Source: Teseptimavirus T7
Sequence record: PP384395
Length of the DNA: 41,194 nucleotides
Direction: 5' to 3' (one strand)
The translations under genes and the position numbers were made by a program. The stretch's first letter is position 1, and each line of letters opens with the position of its first letter. The notes under the pieces were generated by a model that was given only the letters and a program-made list of their open reading frames with translations, was not told where the DNA came from and made no database searches. This document shows positions 33,501 to 41,194 of the stretch, piece by piece.

Positions 33501-34552
33501 TAGGGACCTTGAAGTATTCAACACAGGAACTGGCTGCTCGCTCTCCGTGGACTAAGCTACTGAACGGAACCACTAACTACCTTCTGGATGCTGCGCGTCA
33601 AGGTATGCTTGGGGATGTTATTAGTGCCACCCTAACAGGTAAGACTACCCGCTGGGAGAAAGAAGGCTTCCTTCGTGGTGCCTCCGTAACTCCTGAGCAG
33701 ATGGCTGGCATCAAGTCTCTCATCAAGGAACATATGGTACGCGGTGAGGACGGGAAGTTTACCGTTAAGGACAAGCAAGCGTTCTCTATGGACCCACGGG
33801 CTATGGACTTATGGAGACTGGCTGACAAGGTAGCTGATGAGGCAATGCTGCGTCCACATAAGGTGTCCTTACAGGATTCCCATGCGTTCGGAGCACTAGG
33901 TAAGATGGTTATGCAGTTTAAGTCTTTCACTATCAAGTCCCTTAACTCTAAGTTCCTGCGAACCTTCTATGATGGATACAAGAACAACCGAGCGATTGAC
34001 GCTGCGCTGAGCATCATCACCTCTATGGGTCTCGCTGGTGGTTTCTATGCTATGGCTGCACACGTCAAAGCATACGCTCTGCCTAAGGAGAAACGTAAGG
34101 AGTACTTGGAGCGTGCACTGGACCCAACCATGATTGCCCACGCTGCGTTATCTCGTAGTTCTCAATTGGGTGCTCCTTTGGCTATGGTTGACCTAGTTGG
34201 TGGTGTTTTAGGGTTCGAGTCCTCCAAGATGGCTCGCTCTACGATTCTACCTAAGGACACCGTGAAGGAACGTGACCCAAACAAACCGTACACCTCTAGA
34301 GAGGTAATGGGCGCTATGGGTTCAAACCTTCTGGAACAGATGCCTTCGGCTGGCTTTGTGGCTAACGTAGGGGCTACCTTAATGAATGCTGCTGGCGTGG
34401 TCAACTCACCTAATAAAGCAACCGAGCAGGACTTCATGACTGGTCTTATGAACTCCACAAAAGAGTTAGTACCGAACGACCCATTGACTCAACAGCTTGT
34501 GTTGAAGATTTATGAGGCGAACGGTGTTAACTTGAGGGAGCGTAGGAAATAA
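30596..34552 (+). CDS. 16: Gene 16, internal virion (core) protein D with N-terminal lytic transglycosylase domain
   Basis: 1318-aa ORF; SLT-like motif ESRFVPTAKSKTGPLGMMQFTKATA near the N-terminus. Confidence 0.95.
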   Translation: MDKYDKNVPSDYDGLFQKAADANGVSYDLLRKVAWTESRFVPTAKSKTGPLGMMQFTKATAKALGLRVTDGPDDDRLNPELAINAAAKQLAGLVGKFDGDELKAALAYNQGEGRLGNPQLEAYSKGDFASISEEGRNYMRNLLDVAKSPMAGQLETFGGITPKGKGIPAEVGLAGIGHKQKVTQELPESTSFDVKGIEQEATAKPFAKDFWETHGETLDEYNSRSTFFGFKNAAEAELSNSVAGMAFRAGRLDNGFDVFKDTITPTRWNSHIWTPEELEKIRTEVKNPAYINVVTGGSPENLDDLIKLANENFENDSRAAEAGLGAKLSAGIIGAGVDPLSYVPMVGVTGKGFKLINKALVVGAESAALNVASEGLRTSVAGGDADYAGAALGGFVFGAGMSAISDAVAAGLKRSKPEAEFDNEFIGPMMRLEARETARNANSADLSRMNTENMKFEGEHNGVPYEDLPTERGAVVLHDGSVLSASNPINPKTLKEFSEVDPEKAARGIKLAGFTEIGLKTLGSDDADIRRVAIDLVRSPTGMQSGASGKFGATASDIHERLHGTDQRTYNDLYKAMSDAMKDPEFSTGGAKMSREETRYTIYRRAALAIERPELQKALTPSERIVMDIIKRHFDTKRELMENPAIFGNTKAVSIFPESRHKGTYVPHVYDRHAKALMIQRYGAEGLQEGIARSWMNSYVSRPEVKARVDEMLKELHGVKEVTPEMVEKYAMDKAYGISHSDQFTNSSIIEENIEGLVGIENNSFLEARNLFDSDLSITMPDGQQFSVNDLRDFDMFRIMPAYDRRVNGDIAIMGSTGKTTKELKDEILALKAKAEGDGKKTGEVHALMDTVKILTGRARRNQDTVWETSLRAINDLGFFAKNAYMGAQNITEIAGMIVTGNVRALGHGIPILRDTLYKSKPVSAKELKELHASLFGKEVDQLIRPKRADIVQRLREATDTGPAVANIVGTLKYSTQELAARSPWTKLLNGTTNYLLDAARQGMLGDVISATLTGKTTRWEKEGFLRGASVTPEQMAGIKSLIKEHMVRGEDGKFTVKDKQAFSMDPRAMDLWRLADKVADEAMLRPHKVSLQDSHAFGALGKMVMQFKSFTIKSLNSKFLRTFYDGYKNNRAIDAALSIITSMGLAGGFYAMAAHVKAYALPKEKRKEYLERALDPTMIAHAALSRSSQLGAPLAMVDLVGGVLGFESSKMARSTILPKDTVKERDPNKPYTSREVMGAMGSNLLEQMPSAGFVANVGATLMNAAGVVNSPNKATEQDFMTGLMNSTKELVPNDPLTQQLVLKIYEANGVNLRERRK

Positions 34553-34572
34553 TACGACTCACTATAGGGAGA
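34550..34572 (+). promoter_or_regulatory. T7 promoter phi17 (class III)
   Basis: taatacgactcactatagggaga. Confidence 0.95.
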
Positions 34573-34624
34573 GGCGAAATAATCTTCTCCCTGTAGTCTC
34601 TTAGATTTACTTTAAGGAGGTCAA

Positions 34625-36286
34625 ATGGCTAACGTAATTAAAACCGTTTTGACTTACCAGTTAGATGGCTCCAATCGTGATTTTAATATCCCGTTTGAGT
34701 ATCTAGCCCGTAAGTTCGTAGTGGTAACTCTTATTGGTGTAGACCGAAAGGTCCTTACGATTAATACAGACTATCGCTTTGCTACACGTACTACTATCTC
34801 TCTGACAAAGGCTTGGGGTCCAGCCGATGGCTACACGACCATCGAGTTACGTCGAGTAACCTCCACTACCGACCGATTGGTTGACTTTACGGATGGTTCA
34901 ATCCTCCGCGCGTATGACCTTAACGTCGCTCAGATTCAAACGATGCACGTAGCGGAAGAGGCCCGTGACCTCACTACGGATACTATCGGTGTCAATAACG
35001 ATGGTCACTTGGATGCTCGTGGTCGTCGAATTGTGAACCTAGCGAACGCCGTGGATGACCGCGATGCTGTTCCGTTTGGTCAACTAAAGACCATGAACCA
35101 GAACTCATGGCAAGCACGTAATGAAGCCTTACAGTTCCGTAATGAGGCTGAGACTTTCAGAAACCAAGCGGAGGGCTTTAAGAACGAGTCCAGTACCAAC
35201 GCTACGAACACAAAGCAGTGGCGCGATGAGACCAAGGGTTTCCGAGACGAAGCCAAGCGGTTCAAGAATACGGCTGGTCAATACGCTACATCTGCTGGGA
35301 ACTCTGCTTCCGCTGCGCATCAATCTGAGGTAAACGCTGAGAACTCTGCCACAGCATCCGCTAACTCTGCTCATTTGGCAGAACAGCAAGCAGACCGTGC
35401 GGAACGTGAGGCAGACAAGCTGGAAAATTACAATGGATTGGCTGGTGCAATTGATAAGGTAGATGGAACCAATGTGTACTGGAAAGGAAATATTCACGCT
35501 AACGGGCGCCTTTACATGACCACAAACGGTTTTGACTGTGGCCAGTATCAACAGTTCTTTGGTGGTGTCACTAATCGTTACTCTGTCATGGAGTGGGGAG
35601 ATGAGAACGGATGGCTGATGTATGTTCAACGTAGAGAGTGGACAACAGCGATAGGCGGTAACATCCAGTTAGTAGTAAACGGACAGATCATCACCCAAGG
35701 TGGAGCCATGACCGGTCAGCTAAAATTGCAGAATGGGCATGTTCTTCAATTAGAGTCCGCATCCGACAAGGCGCACTATATTCTATCTAAAGATGGTAAC
35801 AGGAATAACTGGTACATTGGTAGAGGGTCAGATAACAACAATGACTGTACCTTCCACTCCTATGTACATGGTACGACCTTAACACTCAAGCAGGACTATG
35901 CAGTAGTTAACAAACACTTCCACGTAGGTCAGGCCGTTGTGGCCACTGATGGTAATATTCAAGGTACTAAGTGGGGAGGTAAATGGCTGGATGCTTACCT
36001 ACGTGACAGCTTCGTTGCGAAGTCCAAGGCGTGGACTCAGGTGTGGTCTGGTAGTGCTGGCGGTGGGGTAAGTGTGACTGTTTCACAGGATCTCCGCTTC
36101 CGCAATATCTGGATTAAGTGTGCCAACAACTCTTGGAACTTCTTCCGTACTGGCCCCGATGGAATCTACTTCATAGCCTCTGATGGTGGATGGTTACGAT
36201 TCCAAATACACTCCAACGGTCTCGGATTCAAGAATATTGCAGACAGTCGTTCAGTACCTAATGCAATCATGGTGGAGAACGAGTAA
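34625..36286 (+). CDS. 17: Gene 17, tail fibre protein
   Basis: 553-aa ORF MANVIKTVLTYQLDGSNRDFNIPFEYLARKF. Confidence 0.97.
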   Translation: MANVIKTVLTYQLDGSNRDFNIPFEYLARKFVVVTLIGVDRKVLTINTDYRFATRTTISLTKAWGPADGYTTIELRRVTSTTDRLVDFTDGSILRAYDLNVAQIQTMHVAEEARDLTTDTIGVNNDGHLDARGRRIVNLANAVDDRDAVPFGQLKTMNQNSWQARNEALQFRNEAETFRNQAEGFKNESSTNATNTKQWRDETKGFRDEAKRFKNTAGQYATSAGNSASAAHQSEVNAENSATASANSAHLAEQQADRAEREADKLENYNGLAGAIDKVDGTNVYWKGNIHANGRLYMTTNGFDCGQYQQFFGGVTNRYSVMEWGDENGWLMYVQRREWTTAIGGNIQLVVNGQIITQGGAMTGQLKLQNGHVLQLESASDKAHYILSKDGNRNNWYIGRGSDNNNDCTFHSYVHGTTLTLKQDYAVVNKHFHVGQAVVATDGNIQGTKWGGKWLDAYLRDSFVAKSKAWTQVWSGSAGGGVSVTVSQDLRFRNIWIKCANNSWNFFRTGPDGIYFIASDGGWLRFQIHSNGLGFKNIADSRSVPNAIMVENE

Positions 36287-36346
36287 AAACACGTGGCAAA
36301 CATTCCAAACCGGAGCCATACAGTACAAAGCACTCTTAGGCCTCTG

Positions 36347-36507
36347 TACCCACGCCGAAACAAGCGCTCATGAGCCCGAAGTGGCGAGCCCGATCTTCCC
36401 CATCGGTGATGTCGGCGATATAGGCGCCAGCAACCGCACCTGTGGCGCCGGTGATGCCGGCCACGATGCGTCCGGCGTAGAGGATCGAGATCTCGATCCC
36501 GCGAAAT
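36347..36507 (+). other. Plasmid backbone fragment (pBR322 tet-region sequence that lies upstream of the T7 promoter in pET-type vectors), includes a BglII site at 36488..36493
   Basis: acccacgccgaaacaagcgctcatgagcccgaagtggcgagcccgatcttccccatcggtgatgtcggcgatataggcgccagc...gatcgagatctcgatcccgcgaaat recognised as pET vector sequence; not T7. Confidence 0.85.
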
Positions 36508-36530
36508 TAATACGACTCACTATAGGGAGA
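36508..36530 (+). promoter_or_regulatory. Second, cassette-borne copy of the T7 phi10 promoter with gene-10 leader/RBS (36531..36586); no lac operator
   Basis: ttaatacgactcactatagggagaccacaacggtttccctctagCaataattttgtttaactttaagaaggagatataCCATGG; one mismatch to native leader in the XbaI site, NcoI at the start codon. Confidence 0.95.
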
Positions 36531-36556
36531 CCACAACGGTTTCCCTCTAGCAATAA

Positions 36557-37297
<741 letters not shown>

Positions 37298-37348
37298 CTC
37301 GAGCGAGCTCCCGGGGGGGGTTCTCATCATCATCATCATCATTAATAA
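37298..37348 (+). other. Polylinker (XhoI, SacI, SmaI) plus untranslated 6xHis codons and tandem stops, downstream of the mCherry stop
   Basis: ctcgagcgagctcccgggggggg ttct catcatcatcatcatcat taataa; mCherry stop taa at 37295..37297 precedes it. Confidence 0.9.
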
Positions 37349-37391
37349 AAGGGCGAATTCCAGCACACTGGCGGCCGTTACTAGTGGATCC
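37349..37391 (+). other. Cloning-vector polylinker scar (TOPO/pCR-type: EcoRI, SpeI, BamHI)
   Basis: aagggcgaattccagcacactggcggccgttactagtggatcc. Confidence 0.75.
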
Positions 37392-37450
37392 GGCTGCTAA
37401 CAAAGCCCGAAAGGAAGCTGAGTTGGCTGCTGCCACCGCTGAGCAATAAC

Positions 37451-37497
37451 TAGCATAACCCCTTGGGGCCTCTAAACGGGTCTTGAGGGGTTTTTTG
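37451..37497 (+). terminator. Second, cassette-borne copy of the Tphi terminator (pET T7 terminator region 37393..37497)
   Basis: 105-bp block gctgctaacaaagcccgaaaggaagctgagttggctgctgccaccgctgagcaataactagcataaccccttggggcctctaaacgggtcttgaggggttttttg identical to native 24107..24211. Confidence 0.95.
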
Positions 37498-37600
37498 AAA
37501 GGGGCCGTCAATATCAGAAATAAGACGACGACCCTCGAACGATGATGCTCACTCTCGGAAAGACGTGTAGTCCACGGATGGACTCTCAAGGAGGTACAAG

Positions 37601-37804
37601 GTGCTATCATTAGACTTTAACAACGAATTGATTAAGGCTGCTCCAATTGTTGGGACGGGTGTAGCAGATGTTAGTGCTCGACTGTTCTTTGGGTTAAGCC
37701 TTAACGAATGGTTCTACGTTGCTGCTATCGCCTACACAGTGGTTCAGATTGGTGCCAAGGTAGTCGATAAGATGATTGACTGGAAGAAAGCCAATAAGGA
37801 GTGA
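37601..37804 (+). CDS. 17.5: Gene 17.5, holin
   Basis: GTG start after aaggaggt RBS; 67-aa ORF MLSLDFNNELIKAAPIVGTGVADVSARLFFG with a hydrophobic segment. Confidence 0.9.
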   Translation: MLSLDFNNELIKAAPIVGTGVADVSARLFFGLSLNEWFYVAAIAYTVVQIGAKVVDKMIDWKKANKE

Positions 37805-37809
37805 TATGT

Positions 37810-38079
37810 ATGGAAAAGGATAAGAGCCTTATTACATTCTTAGAGATGTTGGACACTGCGATGGCTCAGCGTATGCTTGCGGACCTTTCGGACCATGAGC
37901 GTCGCTCTCCGCAACTCTATAATGCTATTAACAAACTGTTAGACCGCCACAAGTTCCAGATTGGTAAGTTGCAGCCGGATGTTCACATCTTAGGTGGCCT
38001 TGCTGGTGCTCTTGAAGAGTACAAAGAGAAAGTCGGTGATAACGGTCTTACGGATGATGATATTTACACATTACAGTGA
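37810..38079 (+). CDS. 18: Gene 18, terminase small subunit (DNA maturation protein A)
   Basis: ATG at 37810; MEKDKSLITFLEMLDTAMAQRMLADLSDHE; 89 aa. Confidence 0.9.
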   Translation: MEKDKSLITFLEMLDTAMAQRMLADLSDHERRSPQLYNAINKLLDRHKFQIGKLQPDVHILGGLAGALEEYKEKVGDNGLTDDDIYTLQ

Positions 38080-38081
38080 TA

Positions 38082-38130
38082 TACTCAAGGCCACTACAGA
38101 TAGTGGTCTTTATGGATGTCATTGTCTATA
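38082..38130 (+). promoter_or_regulatory. RNase III site R18.5
   Basis: atactcaaggccactacagatagtggtctttatggatg hairpin. Confidence 0.55.
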
Positions 38131-38173
38131 CGAGATGCTCCTACGTGAAATCTGAAAGTTAACGGGAGGCATT

Positions 38174-38605
38174 ATGCTAGAATTTTTACGTAAGCTAATC
38201 CCTTGGGTTCTCGCTGGGATGCTATTCGGGTTAGGATGGCATCTAGGGTCAGACTCAATGGACGCTAAATGGAAACAGGAGGTACACAATGAGTACGTTA
38301 AGAGAGTTGAGGCTGCGAAGAGCACTCAAAGAGCAATCGATGCGGTATCTGCTAAGTATCAAGAAGACCTTGCCGCGCTGGAAGGGAGCACTGATAGGAT
38401 TATTTCTGATTTGCGTAGCGACAATAAGCGGTTGCGCGTCAGAGTCAAAACTACCGGAACCTCCGATGGTCAGTGTGGATTCGAGCCTGATGGTCGAGCC
38501 GAACTTGACGACCGAGATGCTAAACGTATTCTCGCAGTGACCCAGAAGGGTGACGCATGGATTCGTGCGTTACAGGATACTATTCGTGAACTGCAACGTA
38601 AGTAG
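38174..38605 (+). CDS. 18.5: Gene 18.5, Rz-like spanin (inner-membrane component)
   Basis: 143-aa ORF with N-terminal hydrophobic segment MLEFLRKLIPWVLAGMLFGLGWHLG. Confidence 0.9.
   Translation: MLEFLRKLIPWVLAGMLFGLGWHLGSDSMDAKWKQEVHNEYVKRVEAAKSTQRAIDAVSAKYQEDLAALEGSTDRIISDLRSDNKRLRVRVKTTGTSDGQCGFEPDGRAELDDRDAKRILAVTQKGDAWIRALQDTIRELQRK
38289..38540 (+). CDS. 18.7: Gene 18.7, Rz1-like spanin (outer-membrane lipoprotein) embedded in the +1 frame of 18.5
   Basis: 83-aa ORF wholly inside 18.5; lipobox-like LICVATISGCASES. Confidence 0.75.
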   Translation: MSTLRELRLRRALKEQSMRYLLSIKKTLPRWKGALIGLFLICVATISGCASESKLPEPPMVSVDSSLMVEPNLTTEMLNVFSQ

Positions 38606-38626
38606 GAAATCAAGTAAGGAGGCAAT

Positions 38627-40387
38627 GTGTCTACTCAATCCAATCGTAATGCGCTCGTAGTGGCGCAACTGAAAGGAGACTTCGTGGCGTTCCTATTCGT
38701 CTTATGGAAGGCGCTAAACCTACCGGTGCCCACTAAGTGTCAGATTGACATGGCTAAGGTGCTGGCGAATGGAGACAACAAGAAGTTCATCTTACAGGCT
38801 TTCCGTGGTATCGGTAAGTCGTTCATCACATGTGCGTTCGTTGTGTGGTCCTTATGGAGAGACCCTCAGTTGAAGATACTTATCGTATCAGCCTCTAAGG
38901 AGCGTGCAGACGCTAACTCCATCTTTATTAAGAACATCATTGACCTGCTGCCATTCCTATCTGAGTTAAAGCCAAGACCCGGACAGCGTGACTCGGTAAT
39001 CAGCTTTGATGTAGGCCCAGCCAATCCTGACCACTCTCCTAGTGTGAAATCAGTAGGTATCACTGGTCAGTTAACTGGTAGCCGTGCTGACATTATCATT
39101 GCGGATGACGTTGAGATTCCGTCTAACAGCGCAACTATGGGTGCCCGTGAGAAGCTATGGACTCTGGTTCAGGAGTTCGCTGCGTTACTTAAACCGCTGC
39201 CTTCCTCTCGCGTTATCTACCTTGGTACACCTCAGACAGAGATGACTCTCTATAAGGAACTTGAGGATAACCGTGGGTACACAACCATTATCTGGCCTGC
39301 TCTGTACCCAAGGACACGTGAAGAGAACCTCTATTACTCACAGCGTCTTGCTCCTATGTTACGCGCTGAGTACGATGAGAACCCTGAGGCACTTGCTGGG
39401 ACTCCAACAGACCCAGTGCGCTTTGACCGTGATGACCTGCGCGAGCGTGAGTTGGAATACGGTAAGGCTGGCTTTACGCTACAGTTCATGCTTAACCCTA
39501 ACCTTAGTGATGCCGAGAAGTACCCGCTGAGGCTTCGTGACGCTATCGTAGCGGCCTTAGACTTAGAGAAGGCCCCAATGCATTACCAGTGGCTTCCGAA
39601 CCGTCAGAACATCATTGAGGACCTTCCTAACGTTGGCCTTAAGGGTGATGACCTGCATACGTACCACGATTGTTCCAACAACTCAGGTCAGTACCAACAG
39701 AAGATTCTGGTCATTGACCCTAGTGGTCGCGGTAAGGACGAAACAGGTTACGCTGTGCTGTACACACTGAACGGTTACATCTACCTTATGGAAGCTGGAG
39801 GTTTCCGTGATGGCTACTCCGATAAGACCCTTGAGTTACTCGCTAAGAAGGCAAAGCAATGGGGAGTCCAGACGGTTGTCTACGAGAGTAACTTCGGTGA
39901 CGGTATGTTCGGTAAGGTATTCAGTCCTATCCTTCTTAAACACCACAACTGTGCGATGGAAGAGATTCGTGCCCGTGGTATGAAAGAGATGCGTATTTGC
40001 GATACCCTTGAGCCAGTCATGCAGACTCACCGCCTTGTAATTCGTGATGAGGTCATTAGGGCCGACTACCAGTCCGCTCGTGACGTAGACGGTAAGCATG
40101 ACGTTAAGTACTCGTTGTTCTACCAGATGACCCGTATCACTCGTGAGAAAGGCGCTCTGGCTCATGATGACCGATTGGATGCCCTTGCGTTAGGCATTGA
40201 GTATCTCCGTGAGTCCATGCAGTTGGATTCCGTTAAGGTCGAGGGTGAAGTACTTGCTGACTTCCTTGAGGAACACATGATGCGTCCTACGGTTGCTGCT
40301 ACGCATATCATTGAGATGTCTGTGGGAGGAGTTGATGTGTACTCTGAGGACGATGAGGGTTACGGTACGTCTTTCATTGAGTGGTGA
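38627..40387 (+). CDS. 19: Gene 19, terminase large subunit (DNA maturation protein B)
   Basis: GTG start after taaggagg RBS; 586-aa [36 protein letters not shown]. Confidence 0.95.
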
Positions 40388-40468
40388 TTTATGCATTAGG
40401 ACTGCATAGGGATGCACTATAGACCACGGATGGTCAGTTCTTTAAGTTACTGAAAAGACACGATAAAT

Positions 40469-40491
40469 TAATACGACTCACTATAGGGAGA
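40469..40491 (+). promoter_or_regulatory. T7 promoter phiOR near the right end
   Basis: ttaatacgactcactatagggaga. Confidence 0.95.
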
Positions 40492-40645
40492 GGAGGGACG
40501 AAAGGTTACTATATAGATACTGAATGAATACTTATAGAGTGCATAAAGTATGCATAATGGTGTACCTAGAGTGACCTCTAAGAATGGTGATTATATTGTA
40601 TTAGTATCACCTTAACTTAAGGACCAACATAAAGGGAGGAGACTC

Positions 40646-40795
40646 ATGTTCCGCTTATTGTTGAACCTACTGCGGCATAGAGTCACCTACCGATTTCTTG
40701 TGGTACTTTGTGCTGCCCTTGGGTACGCATCTCTTACTGGAGACCTCAGTTCACTGGAGTCTGTCGTTTGCTCTATACTCACTTGTAGCGATTAG
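40646..40795 (+). CDS. 19.5: Gene 19.5, small protein of unknown function
   Basis: ATG at 40646 after aagggagg RBS; MFRLLLNLLRHRVTYRFLVVLCAALGYASLTGDL; 49 aa, too short for the ORF track. Confidence 0.75.
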   Translation: MFRLLLNLLRHRVTYRFLVVLCAALGYASLTGDLSSLESVVCSILTCSD

Positions 40796-40889
40796 GGTCT
40801 TCCTGACCGACTGATGGCTCACCGAGGGATTCAGCGGTATGATTGCATCACACCACTTCATCCCTATAGAGTCAAGTCCTAAGGTATAC

Positions 40890-41030
40890 CCATAAAGAGC
40901 CTCTAATGGTCTATCCTAAGGTCTATACCTAAAGATAGGCCATCCTATCAGTGTCACCTAAAGAGGGTCTTAGAGAGGGCCTATGGAGTTCCTATAGGGT
41001 CCTTTAAAATATACCATAAAAATCTGAGTG
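40890..41030. repeat. Right-end array of short imperfect repeats (cctaaag / cctaagg / ccataaa units)
   Basis: Reiterated short motifs immediately left of the right terminal repeat, mirroring the left-end array. Confidence 0.65.
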
Positions 41031-41034
41031 ACTA

Positions 41035-41194
41035 TCTCACAGTGTACGGACCTAAAGTTCCCCCATAGGGGGTACCTAAAGCCCAGCCAATCACCTAAAG
41101 TCAACCTTCGGTTGACCTTGAGGGTTCCCTAAGGGTTGGGGATGACCCTTGGGTTTGTCTTTGGGTGTTACCTTGAGTGTCTCTCTGTGTCCCT
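41035..41194. repeat. Right terminal repeat of the T7 genome (160 bp)
   Basis: Identical to 1..160. Confidence 0.95.

Follow-up and report, generated by a model that had tools for sequence, protein, structure and literature searches.

A designed second Tphi terminator ahead of the lysis and packaging genes in a T7 mCherry reporter phage

The window analyzed here, the whole 41,194-nt stretch of sequence record PP384395, contains a second, exact copy of the T7 terminator Tphi directly upstream of the lysis and packaging genes, as the first-pass annotation of this DNA had proposed; it ends 104 nt upstream of gene 17.5, whose GTG start codon is at 37601. The element was designed as the 3' end of a synthetic reporter cassette (T7 promoter, mCherry, Tphi) carried by the already published PHEIGES phage T7-mC-g17-o. 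We consider it likely that this designed terminator would make genes 17.5-19 dependent on read-through and that their resulting under-expression would slow lysis, an explanation that draws on the position of the terminator, on the promoter map behind it and on re-analyzed culture-lysis curves of this phage and two sibling constructs.

Identity and layout of the reporter cassette

Comparison of the window with wild-type T7 (V01146) revealed three differences: an additional A at 1897, G in place of A at 22630, and a 1,270-bp insert (36287-37556) that replaces 14 bp (TTGGTAAATCACAA) of the spacer between genes 17 and 17.5. From 37557 to the right end the window is 100% identical to wild type, and the coding DNA of genes 17, 17.5, 18, 18.5 and 19 is unaltered. 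GenBank PP384397 ("recombinant T7_mCg1o") carries a cassette 100% identical to the insert and PP384393 ("T7_mCg10o") a nearly identical one, and in both records it is annotated as an added T7 promoter plus mCherry. Primers listed in Supplementary Data 2 of PMC10933291 match both junctions, with gp17-oho1-as and oho1-mcherry-s covering the left one (36263-36365) and oho2-mcherry-as and gp17-oho2-s the right one (37478-37577), and this published primer design explains both the loss of the 14 bp and the end of the cassette at TTTTTTG. In addition, the accession table of the PHEIGES paper (Levrier et al., Nat Commun 2024; PMC10933291) lists T7_mC-g17-o as PP384395. Judged by the siblings, the primers and this table, the window is T7-mC-g17-o or its exact equivalent. 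A natural origin, or a novel regulatory element, is ruled out because only the insert and the two background changes separate the window from V01146 and the insert matches published primers; what had been treated as a property of "a T7 genome" is a deliberate, published design.

The two small changes, the extra A in the gene 0.6B region and the gene 9 substitution N227S produced by A>G at 22630, are shared with sibling PP384397 and therefore belong to the laboratory-strain background rather than to this construct. The dropped 14 bp correspond to wild-type 36286-36299, at the 36286/36287 junction; for any phenotype that the phage shows, their loss and the terminator are confounded. The parts of the insert and its right flank, all on the + strand, are as follows.

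36287-36346, +, oho1, a 60-nt synthetic "orthogonal" assembly overhang forming the left scar; absent from wild-type T7
36347-36507, +, pET/pBR322-derived backbone (161 bp) upstream of the cassette promoter; absent from wild-type T7
36508-36586, +, T7 promoter of the cassette (consensus class III; +1 G at 36525) with the gene 10 leader and ribosome-binding site
36587-37297, +, mCherry ORF, 236 aa, with its own TAA stop; Pfam GFP family, E = 3.9e-45
37298-37392, +, untranslated vector polylinker with a His6 stretch, read from the sequence as ...tacaagTAActcgag...catcatcatcatcatcatTAATAA...
37393-37497, +, cassette Tphi, comprising 57 bp of native upstream context and the 48-nt terminator; hairpin 37457-37492, U-run ending in G at 37497
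37498-37557, +, oho2, a 60-nt synthetic overhang forming the right scar; matches primer gp17-oho2-s
37558-37600, +, remainder of the native 17-17.5 intergenic region (compared with V01146), with a small hairpin and the gene 17.5 Shine-Dalgarno sequence (AAGGAGGT)

The left scar begins directly after the gene 17 stop codon (36284-36286) and matches primer oho1-mcherry-s and the reverse complement of gp17-oho1-as. The adjoining 161 bp, which are identical in PP384397, match pET-type plasmid backbones and tet(C) fragments. The cassette promoter (36508-36528) shows 0 mismatches to TAATACGACTCACTATAGGGA, and the same sequence is annotated in PP384397 as "T7 promoter added for mCherry cassette"; together with its surroundings (36502-36585) it repeats the native phi10 region (22882-22965) with one mismatch, a C for A at 36551. 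That base converts the XbaI site TCTAGA in the gene 10 leader to TCTAGC. The mCherry ORF has an identical copy annotated as mCherry in both siblings, and because the His6-coding stretch (37298-37345) lies 3' of its TAA stop, that stretch is untranslated and the reporter is untagged. The resulting order of consensus T7 promoter, gene 10 leader and ribosome-binding site, reporter ORF and Tphi, absent from wild-type T7, is that of an expression cassette. Beyond Tphi, oho2 supplants the native downstream sequence, to which it has no identity, and the intergenic remainder lacks the first 14 bp of the native spacer but keeps the small hairpin and the Shine-Dalgarno sequence.

The cassette resembles those of pET and pIVEX vectors in its phi10 promoter and leader (84 bp, identical but for one base), its usual Tphi fragment, its polylinker and its His6 remnant. 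In contrast to those vectors, it resides in a phage genome, is bounded by 60-nt orthogonal scars, has no lac operator and carries the altered XbaI site (TCTAGC). Two pairs of direct repeats follow from this design, one with the native phi10 region (22882-22965 and 36502-36585; 84 bp, 1 mismatch, 13.6 kb apart) and one with the native Tphi region (24107-24211 and 37393-37497; 105 bp, exact, 13.3 kb apart). Recombination between the repeats would remove essential genes 10/11-17; phages with such a deletion should not survive, and the cassette should therefore be comparatively stable. Antisense to mCherry runs a 265-aa open reading frame (36569-37366, - strand), most likely a by-product of the G+C-rich (62%) codon-optimized mCherry rather than a real gene.

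The extra terminator and the genes behind it

The 48-nt Tphi sequence (CTAGCATAACCCCTTGGGGCCTCTAAACGGGTCTTGAGGGGTTTTTTG) occurs in two exact + strand copies, the native one at 24164-24211 and the cassette one at 37450-37497, with 0 expected by chance; the coordinates 37451-37497 given in the first-pass annotation thus have the right end and a start that is one base off. Identity between the copies is uninterrupted over 105/105 bp (37393-37497 and 24107-24211) up to the terminal G of the U-run, which is exactly where the cassette amplicon ends (primer oho2-mcherry-as). For the RNA of the cassette copy, folding predicts a hairpin (15-bp stem, 6-nt loop) with U6 directly after it (-24.2 kcal/mol, z = -2.3 relative to shuffles). 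The element, which has phi13, phi17 and the cassette promoter upstream of it on the + strand, thus shows the hairpin and U-run of a class I terminator.

A generic terminator-pattern scan of 34400-41194 passed over the cassette Tphi. The probable reason is that pairing of two U within the stem reduces the tail window to fewer than five T; such scans can miss even the well-known Tphi, and the missed call is no evidence against the terminator. An Rfam search of 36000-38300 returned nothing above the gathering score, the osmY hit (18.6 bits compared with 46.9, E = 0.36) being a chance match.

The features around and behind the two terminators are listed next.

24107-24211, +, native Tphi (3' of gene 10), which served as template of the cassette copy
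37601-37804, +, gene 17.5 (holin); DNA as in wild type; Pfam Phage_holin_2_2, E = 7.5e-38
37810-40387, +, genes 18, 18.5/18.7 and 19 (terminase small subunit, spanins and terminase large subunit); annotation from V01146 and PP384397
40469-40489, +, phiOR, the first T7 promoter past the extra terminator; 0 mismatches; annotated in V01146 and PP384397

Gene 17.5 is the first gene 3' of the extra terminator, and the block of genes 18-19 is 100% identical to wild-type 36300-39937. With <=3 mismatches allowed, a consensus search detected no T7 promoter between 36528 and 40469; the class III consensus was matched perfectly at phi6.5, phi9, phi10, phi13, phi17, the cassette promoter (36508-36528) and phiOR. 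The V01146 annotation holds a single T7 terminator, after gene 10, and none between phi13/phi17 and the right end. Because no consensus promoter was found between the extra terminator and phiOR, genes 17.5, 18, 18.5/18.7 and 19 need read-through of 37497, whereas gene 19.5, which lies downstream of phiOR (40469), is exempt. The proposal that late transcripts for 17.5-19.5 must all pass Tphi therefore holds for 17.5-19 and fails for 19.5.

The two Tphi sites share their 105 bp, their strand and their polymerase, and behind each of them essential, promoter-less genes depend on read-through; genes 11 and 12, which have no promoter, are entirely read-through-dependent behind the native Tphi (PMC2952870). 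Unlike the native element after gene 10, the cassette copy sits after gene 17, retains only 57 bp of native upstream context and is followed by synthetic sequence immediately past its terminal G. Moreover, the lysis and packaging genes behind it have evolved with no terminator in front, unlike those behind the native site.

Published efficiencies suggest how large the effect could be. The core Tphi hairpin terminates with 62% efficiency in vivo, and with higher efficiency in the larger upstream context of expression plasmids (PMC9157156), and efficiencies up to 95% are reached in vivo at low levels of T7 RNA polymerase (PMC2952870). In the mechanism that we propose, the extra hairpin would be reached by polymerases that started at phi13, phi17 or the cassette promoter or that had read through from further upstream, about 60-95% of them would release there, and genes 17.5, 18, 18.5/18.7 and 19 would become read-through-dependent in the manner of genes 11 and 12; the 62-95% range should be read with the caveat that it comes from other contexts, this copy keeping only 57 bp upstream and having a synthetic downstream flank. 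Flux arithmetic that takes all class III promoters as equal, with no occlusion and no differential decay, would put transcription of 17.5-19 at 0.50, 0.28, 0.14 and 0.07 of wild type for efficiencies of 0.62, 0.80, 0.90 and 0.95, respectively, a drop to about 7-50% of wild type of which the cassette promoter would restore a minor part. The same arithmetic assigns that promoter 22-32% of the transcripts passing the terminator; since its transcripts meet the same hairpin, compensation by the cassette promoter, suggested earlier as a partial remedy, can contribute but only to a small extent. Overall, the extra terminator probably lowers expression of the lysis and packaging genes behind it.

Antitermination could weaken this effect. 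As G-rich abortive transcripts from class III promoters accumulate, they block hairpin formation and lower Tphi efficiency, and late in infection they can antiterminate Tphi strongly (PMC2952870), so that termination may be low at the late time when 17.5-19 are needed. Carried to its limit, this argument leads to an alternative in which the extra Tphi is almost silent late in infection and the slower lysis described below arises from some other effect specific to the locus. Abortive transcripts of phi6.5, phi9, phi10, phi13, phi17 and phiOR act on Tphi as antiterminators in vitro as well as in vivo, T7 lysozyme should enhance antitermination late in infection (PMC2952870), and the cassette itself brings one further class III promoter of this kind. 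In RNA-seq of T7 infections, read depth is nevertheless clearly lower past the native Tphi at both 5 and 9 min (PMC6938266), and we judge a nearly silent extra copy to be unlikely.

Culture collapse in published plate data

Lysis kinetics were obtained by re-analysis of the Source Data of PMC10933291, which contain OD600 curves of phage dilution series on E. coli B. The plate blocks are labeled "OD WT" (wells A/E), "OD gp10" (C/G) and "OD gp17" (D/H); the remaining block, B/F, was assigned to g1-o (T7_mCg1o) by elimination, and its columns B5-B8 match the values of the Figure 2d sheet. For each well, collapse time was defined as the time in which OD fell from 90% to 10% of the peak-to-floor amplitude. 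Because collapse lengthens with peak OD in all phages, the comparison was both OD-matched and OD-adjusted. All curves were recorded on one 96-well plate, with a single lysate of each phage at a low, unstated multiplicity, and collapse duration serves as an indirect proxy for lysis timing. At a matched peak OD of 0.05-0.16, collapse times were as follows.

g17-o: 24.2 ± 1.4 min (range 21.9-26.0), 12 wells, peak OD 0.05-0.16
wild type: 15.0 ± 3.0 min, 8 wells, peak OD 0.05-0.16
g1-o: 14.9 ± 2.7 min, 10 wells, peak OD 0.05-0.16
g10-o: 14.1 ± 0.9 min, 12 wells, peak OD 0.05-0.16

The g17-o range did not overlap those of wild type, g1-o or g10-o, and a linear model adjusted for peak OD gave differences of +8.6 ± 0.7 min for g17-o, +1.0 ± 0.8 min for g1-o and -0.1 ± 0.6 min for g10-o. 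The expectation of altered lysis timing in the first-pass annotation thus gains indirect support, in the form of slower lysis by this plate-data proxy (24.2 compared with 14-15 min); the slow collapse fits the prediction made from the terminator without proving that the terminator is causal.

One way to read these curves is that there is no real phenotype and that the slow collapse of g17-o is an artefact of one plate and one lysate, reflecting stock quality, defective particles, debris or plate position, so that the terminator would have no measurable consequence for phage growth. All wells do belong to one plate-reader run in which each phage was represented by one stock, with input titres that differ and are unstated. 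Furthermore, the time shift per dilution step is non-specific for g17-o, g1-o also being slower than wild type by this measure, and the authors of PMC10933291 report no kinetic difference. The effect was present, however, in 16/16 analyzable g17-o wells, across four dilutions and in plate rows D and H, without overlap with the 30 OD-matched control wells, and the two siblings, made and handled in the same way, behaved like wild type. These observations make an artefact highly improbable.

Two causes specific to the phage also appear unlikely. Plateau mCherry at similar peak OD was about 200 units for g10-o, about 120 for g17-o and about 45 for g1-o (Figure 2d sheet); since g10-o fluoresces more and has normal kinetics, mCherry burden is unlikely to cause the slow lysis. 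Second-site mutations are unlikely at the consensus level, as both background changes are common to g1-o. Nor is the phage grossly defective: the g17 construct gave the highest cell-free assembly titre, 2e8 PFU/ml, and it remains fully viable.

If the terminator contributed little, the slow collapse would have to come from something else at the insertion site, the candidates being the 14-bp spacer deletion, an altered 5' UTR or altered processing or stability of the 17.5-19 message, and a changed 3' end of the tail-fibre message. The insertion does delete TTGGTAAATCACAA, add 60-nt scars and change the 3' flank of gene 17, and processing and decay strongly shape T7 transcript levels (PMC6938266). 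On the other side, the predicted accessibility of the gene 17.5 start region was 0.39-0.41 in wild-type and engineered sequence alike across four window sizes, so that masking of the 17.5 ribosome-binding site by the new upstream RNA is unsupported, and the native Shine-Dalgarno sequence and small hairpin are retained. To our knowledge, the deleted 14 bp contain no functional element. No function is annotated there in V01146 either. We therefore regard these candidates as rather improbable sources of the delay.

A further alternative places the main consequence of the insertion not in reduced gene expression but at the right end of the genome, through interference with entry of the last 3.7 kb or with delivery of polymerase to the concatemer-junction pause site. 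Transcription draws most of the T7 genome into the cell, and polymerase that has paused at the concatemer-junction site is implicated in T7 packaging. The class II pause motif ATCTGTT is indeed found just past the terminal repeat, at 161-167, its only + strand copy, with none in 36287-37600. We give this alternative almost no weight, since the native Tphi at 24.2 kb presents the same obstacle to entry in wild type with no known harm and phiOR, located past the new terminator, feeds the junction independently.

Weighed against these alternatives, read-through dependence of genes 17.5-19 offers the best account of the plate data. Under-expressed holin and/or terminase would lead g17-o, alone among the three siblings, to collapse cultures about 9 min more slowly, and in these re-analyzed published data such under-expression is the most likely reason for the delay. 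Deletion of the holin gene in T7 causes a modest delay of lysis (PMC2680503; PMC8365609), which makes reduced holin, possibly together with reduced terminase, a reasonable cause; by the same token, if complete loss of holin produces only a modest delay, partial reduction alone may not explain a near doubling of collapse time. We are about evenly divided on the more specific proposal that the holin-terminase-spanin block has been accidentally gated by read-through, set by terminator efficiency and late antitermination together, and that this gating causes the approximately 9-min slower collapse.

Sibling constructs and cassette placement

The siblings T7_mCg1o (PP384397) and T7_mCg10o (PP384393) carry the same cassette in the same background (+A at 1897, gene 9 N227S) and differ from g17-o in what lies around the terminator. 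There are two Tphi copies in g1-o as well, but class II promoters (phi1.1B, phi1.3 and others) lie behind the extra one. The g10-o cassette was placed upstream of a single, shared Tphi and no terminator was added. Of the three constructs, g17-o alone has a terminator ahead of a promoter-less block, and g17-o alone shows slow culture collapse.

The biology involved is ordinary, namely the best-known T7 terminator in a deliberately built and published reporter phage. For phage engineers, the result suggests that the effect of a promoter-gene-terminator cassette depends on where in T7 it is inserted: when it follows gene 17, its terminator would intercept the sole transcription feeding the holin, spanin and terminase genes, and in the paper's own plate data the g17 insertion site, unlike the other two, nearly doubles the time of culture clearing. 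The obvious fix is to omit the terminator or to place a promoter after it. If read-through gating is true, g17-o would provide a ready-made assay of Tphi read-through in a real infection, and the timing of T7 lysis would be tunable by editing one hairpin.

Two further observations concern the siblings. Across the three constructs, the mCherry plateau rises with the number of strong class III promoters that precede the insertion site. In PP384397 the cassette (5845-7115) was inserted at wild-type 5844, inside phi1.1A (+1 at 5848), and this promoter is missing from the annotation of that record.
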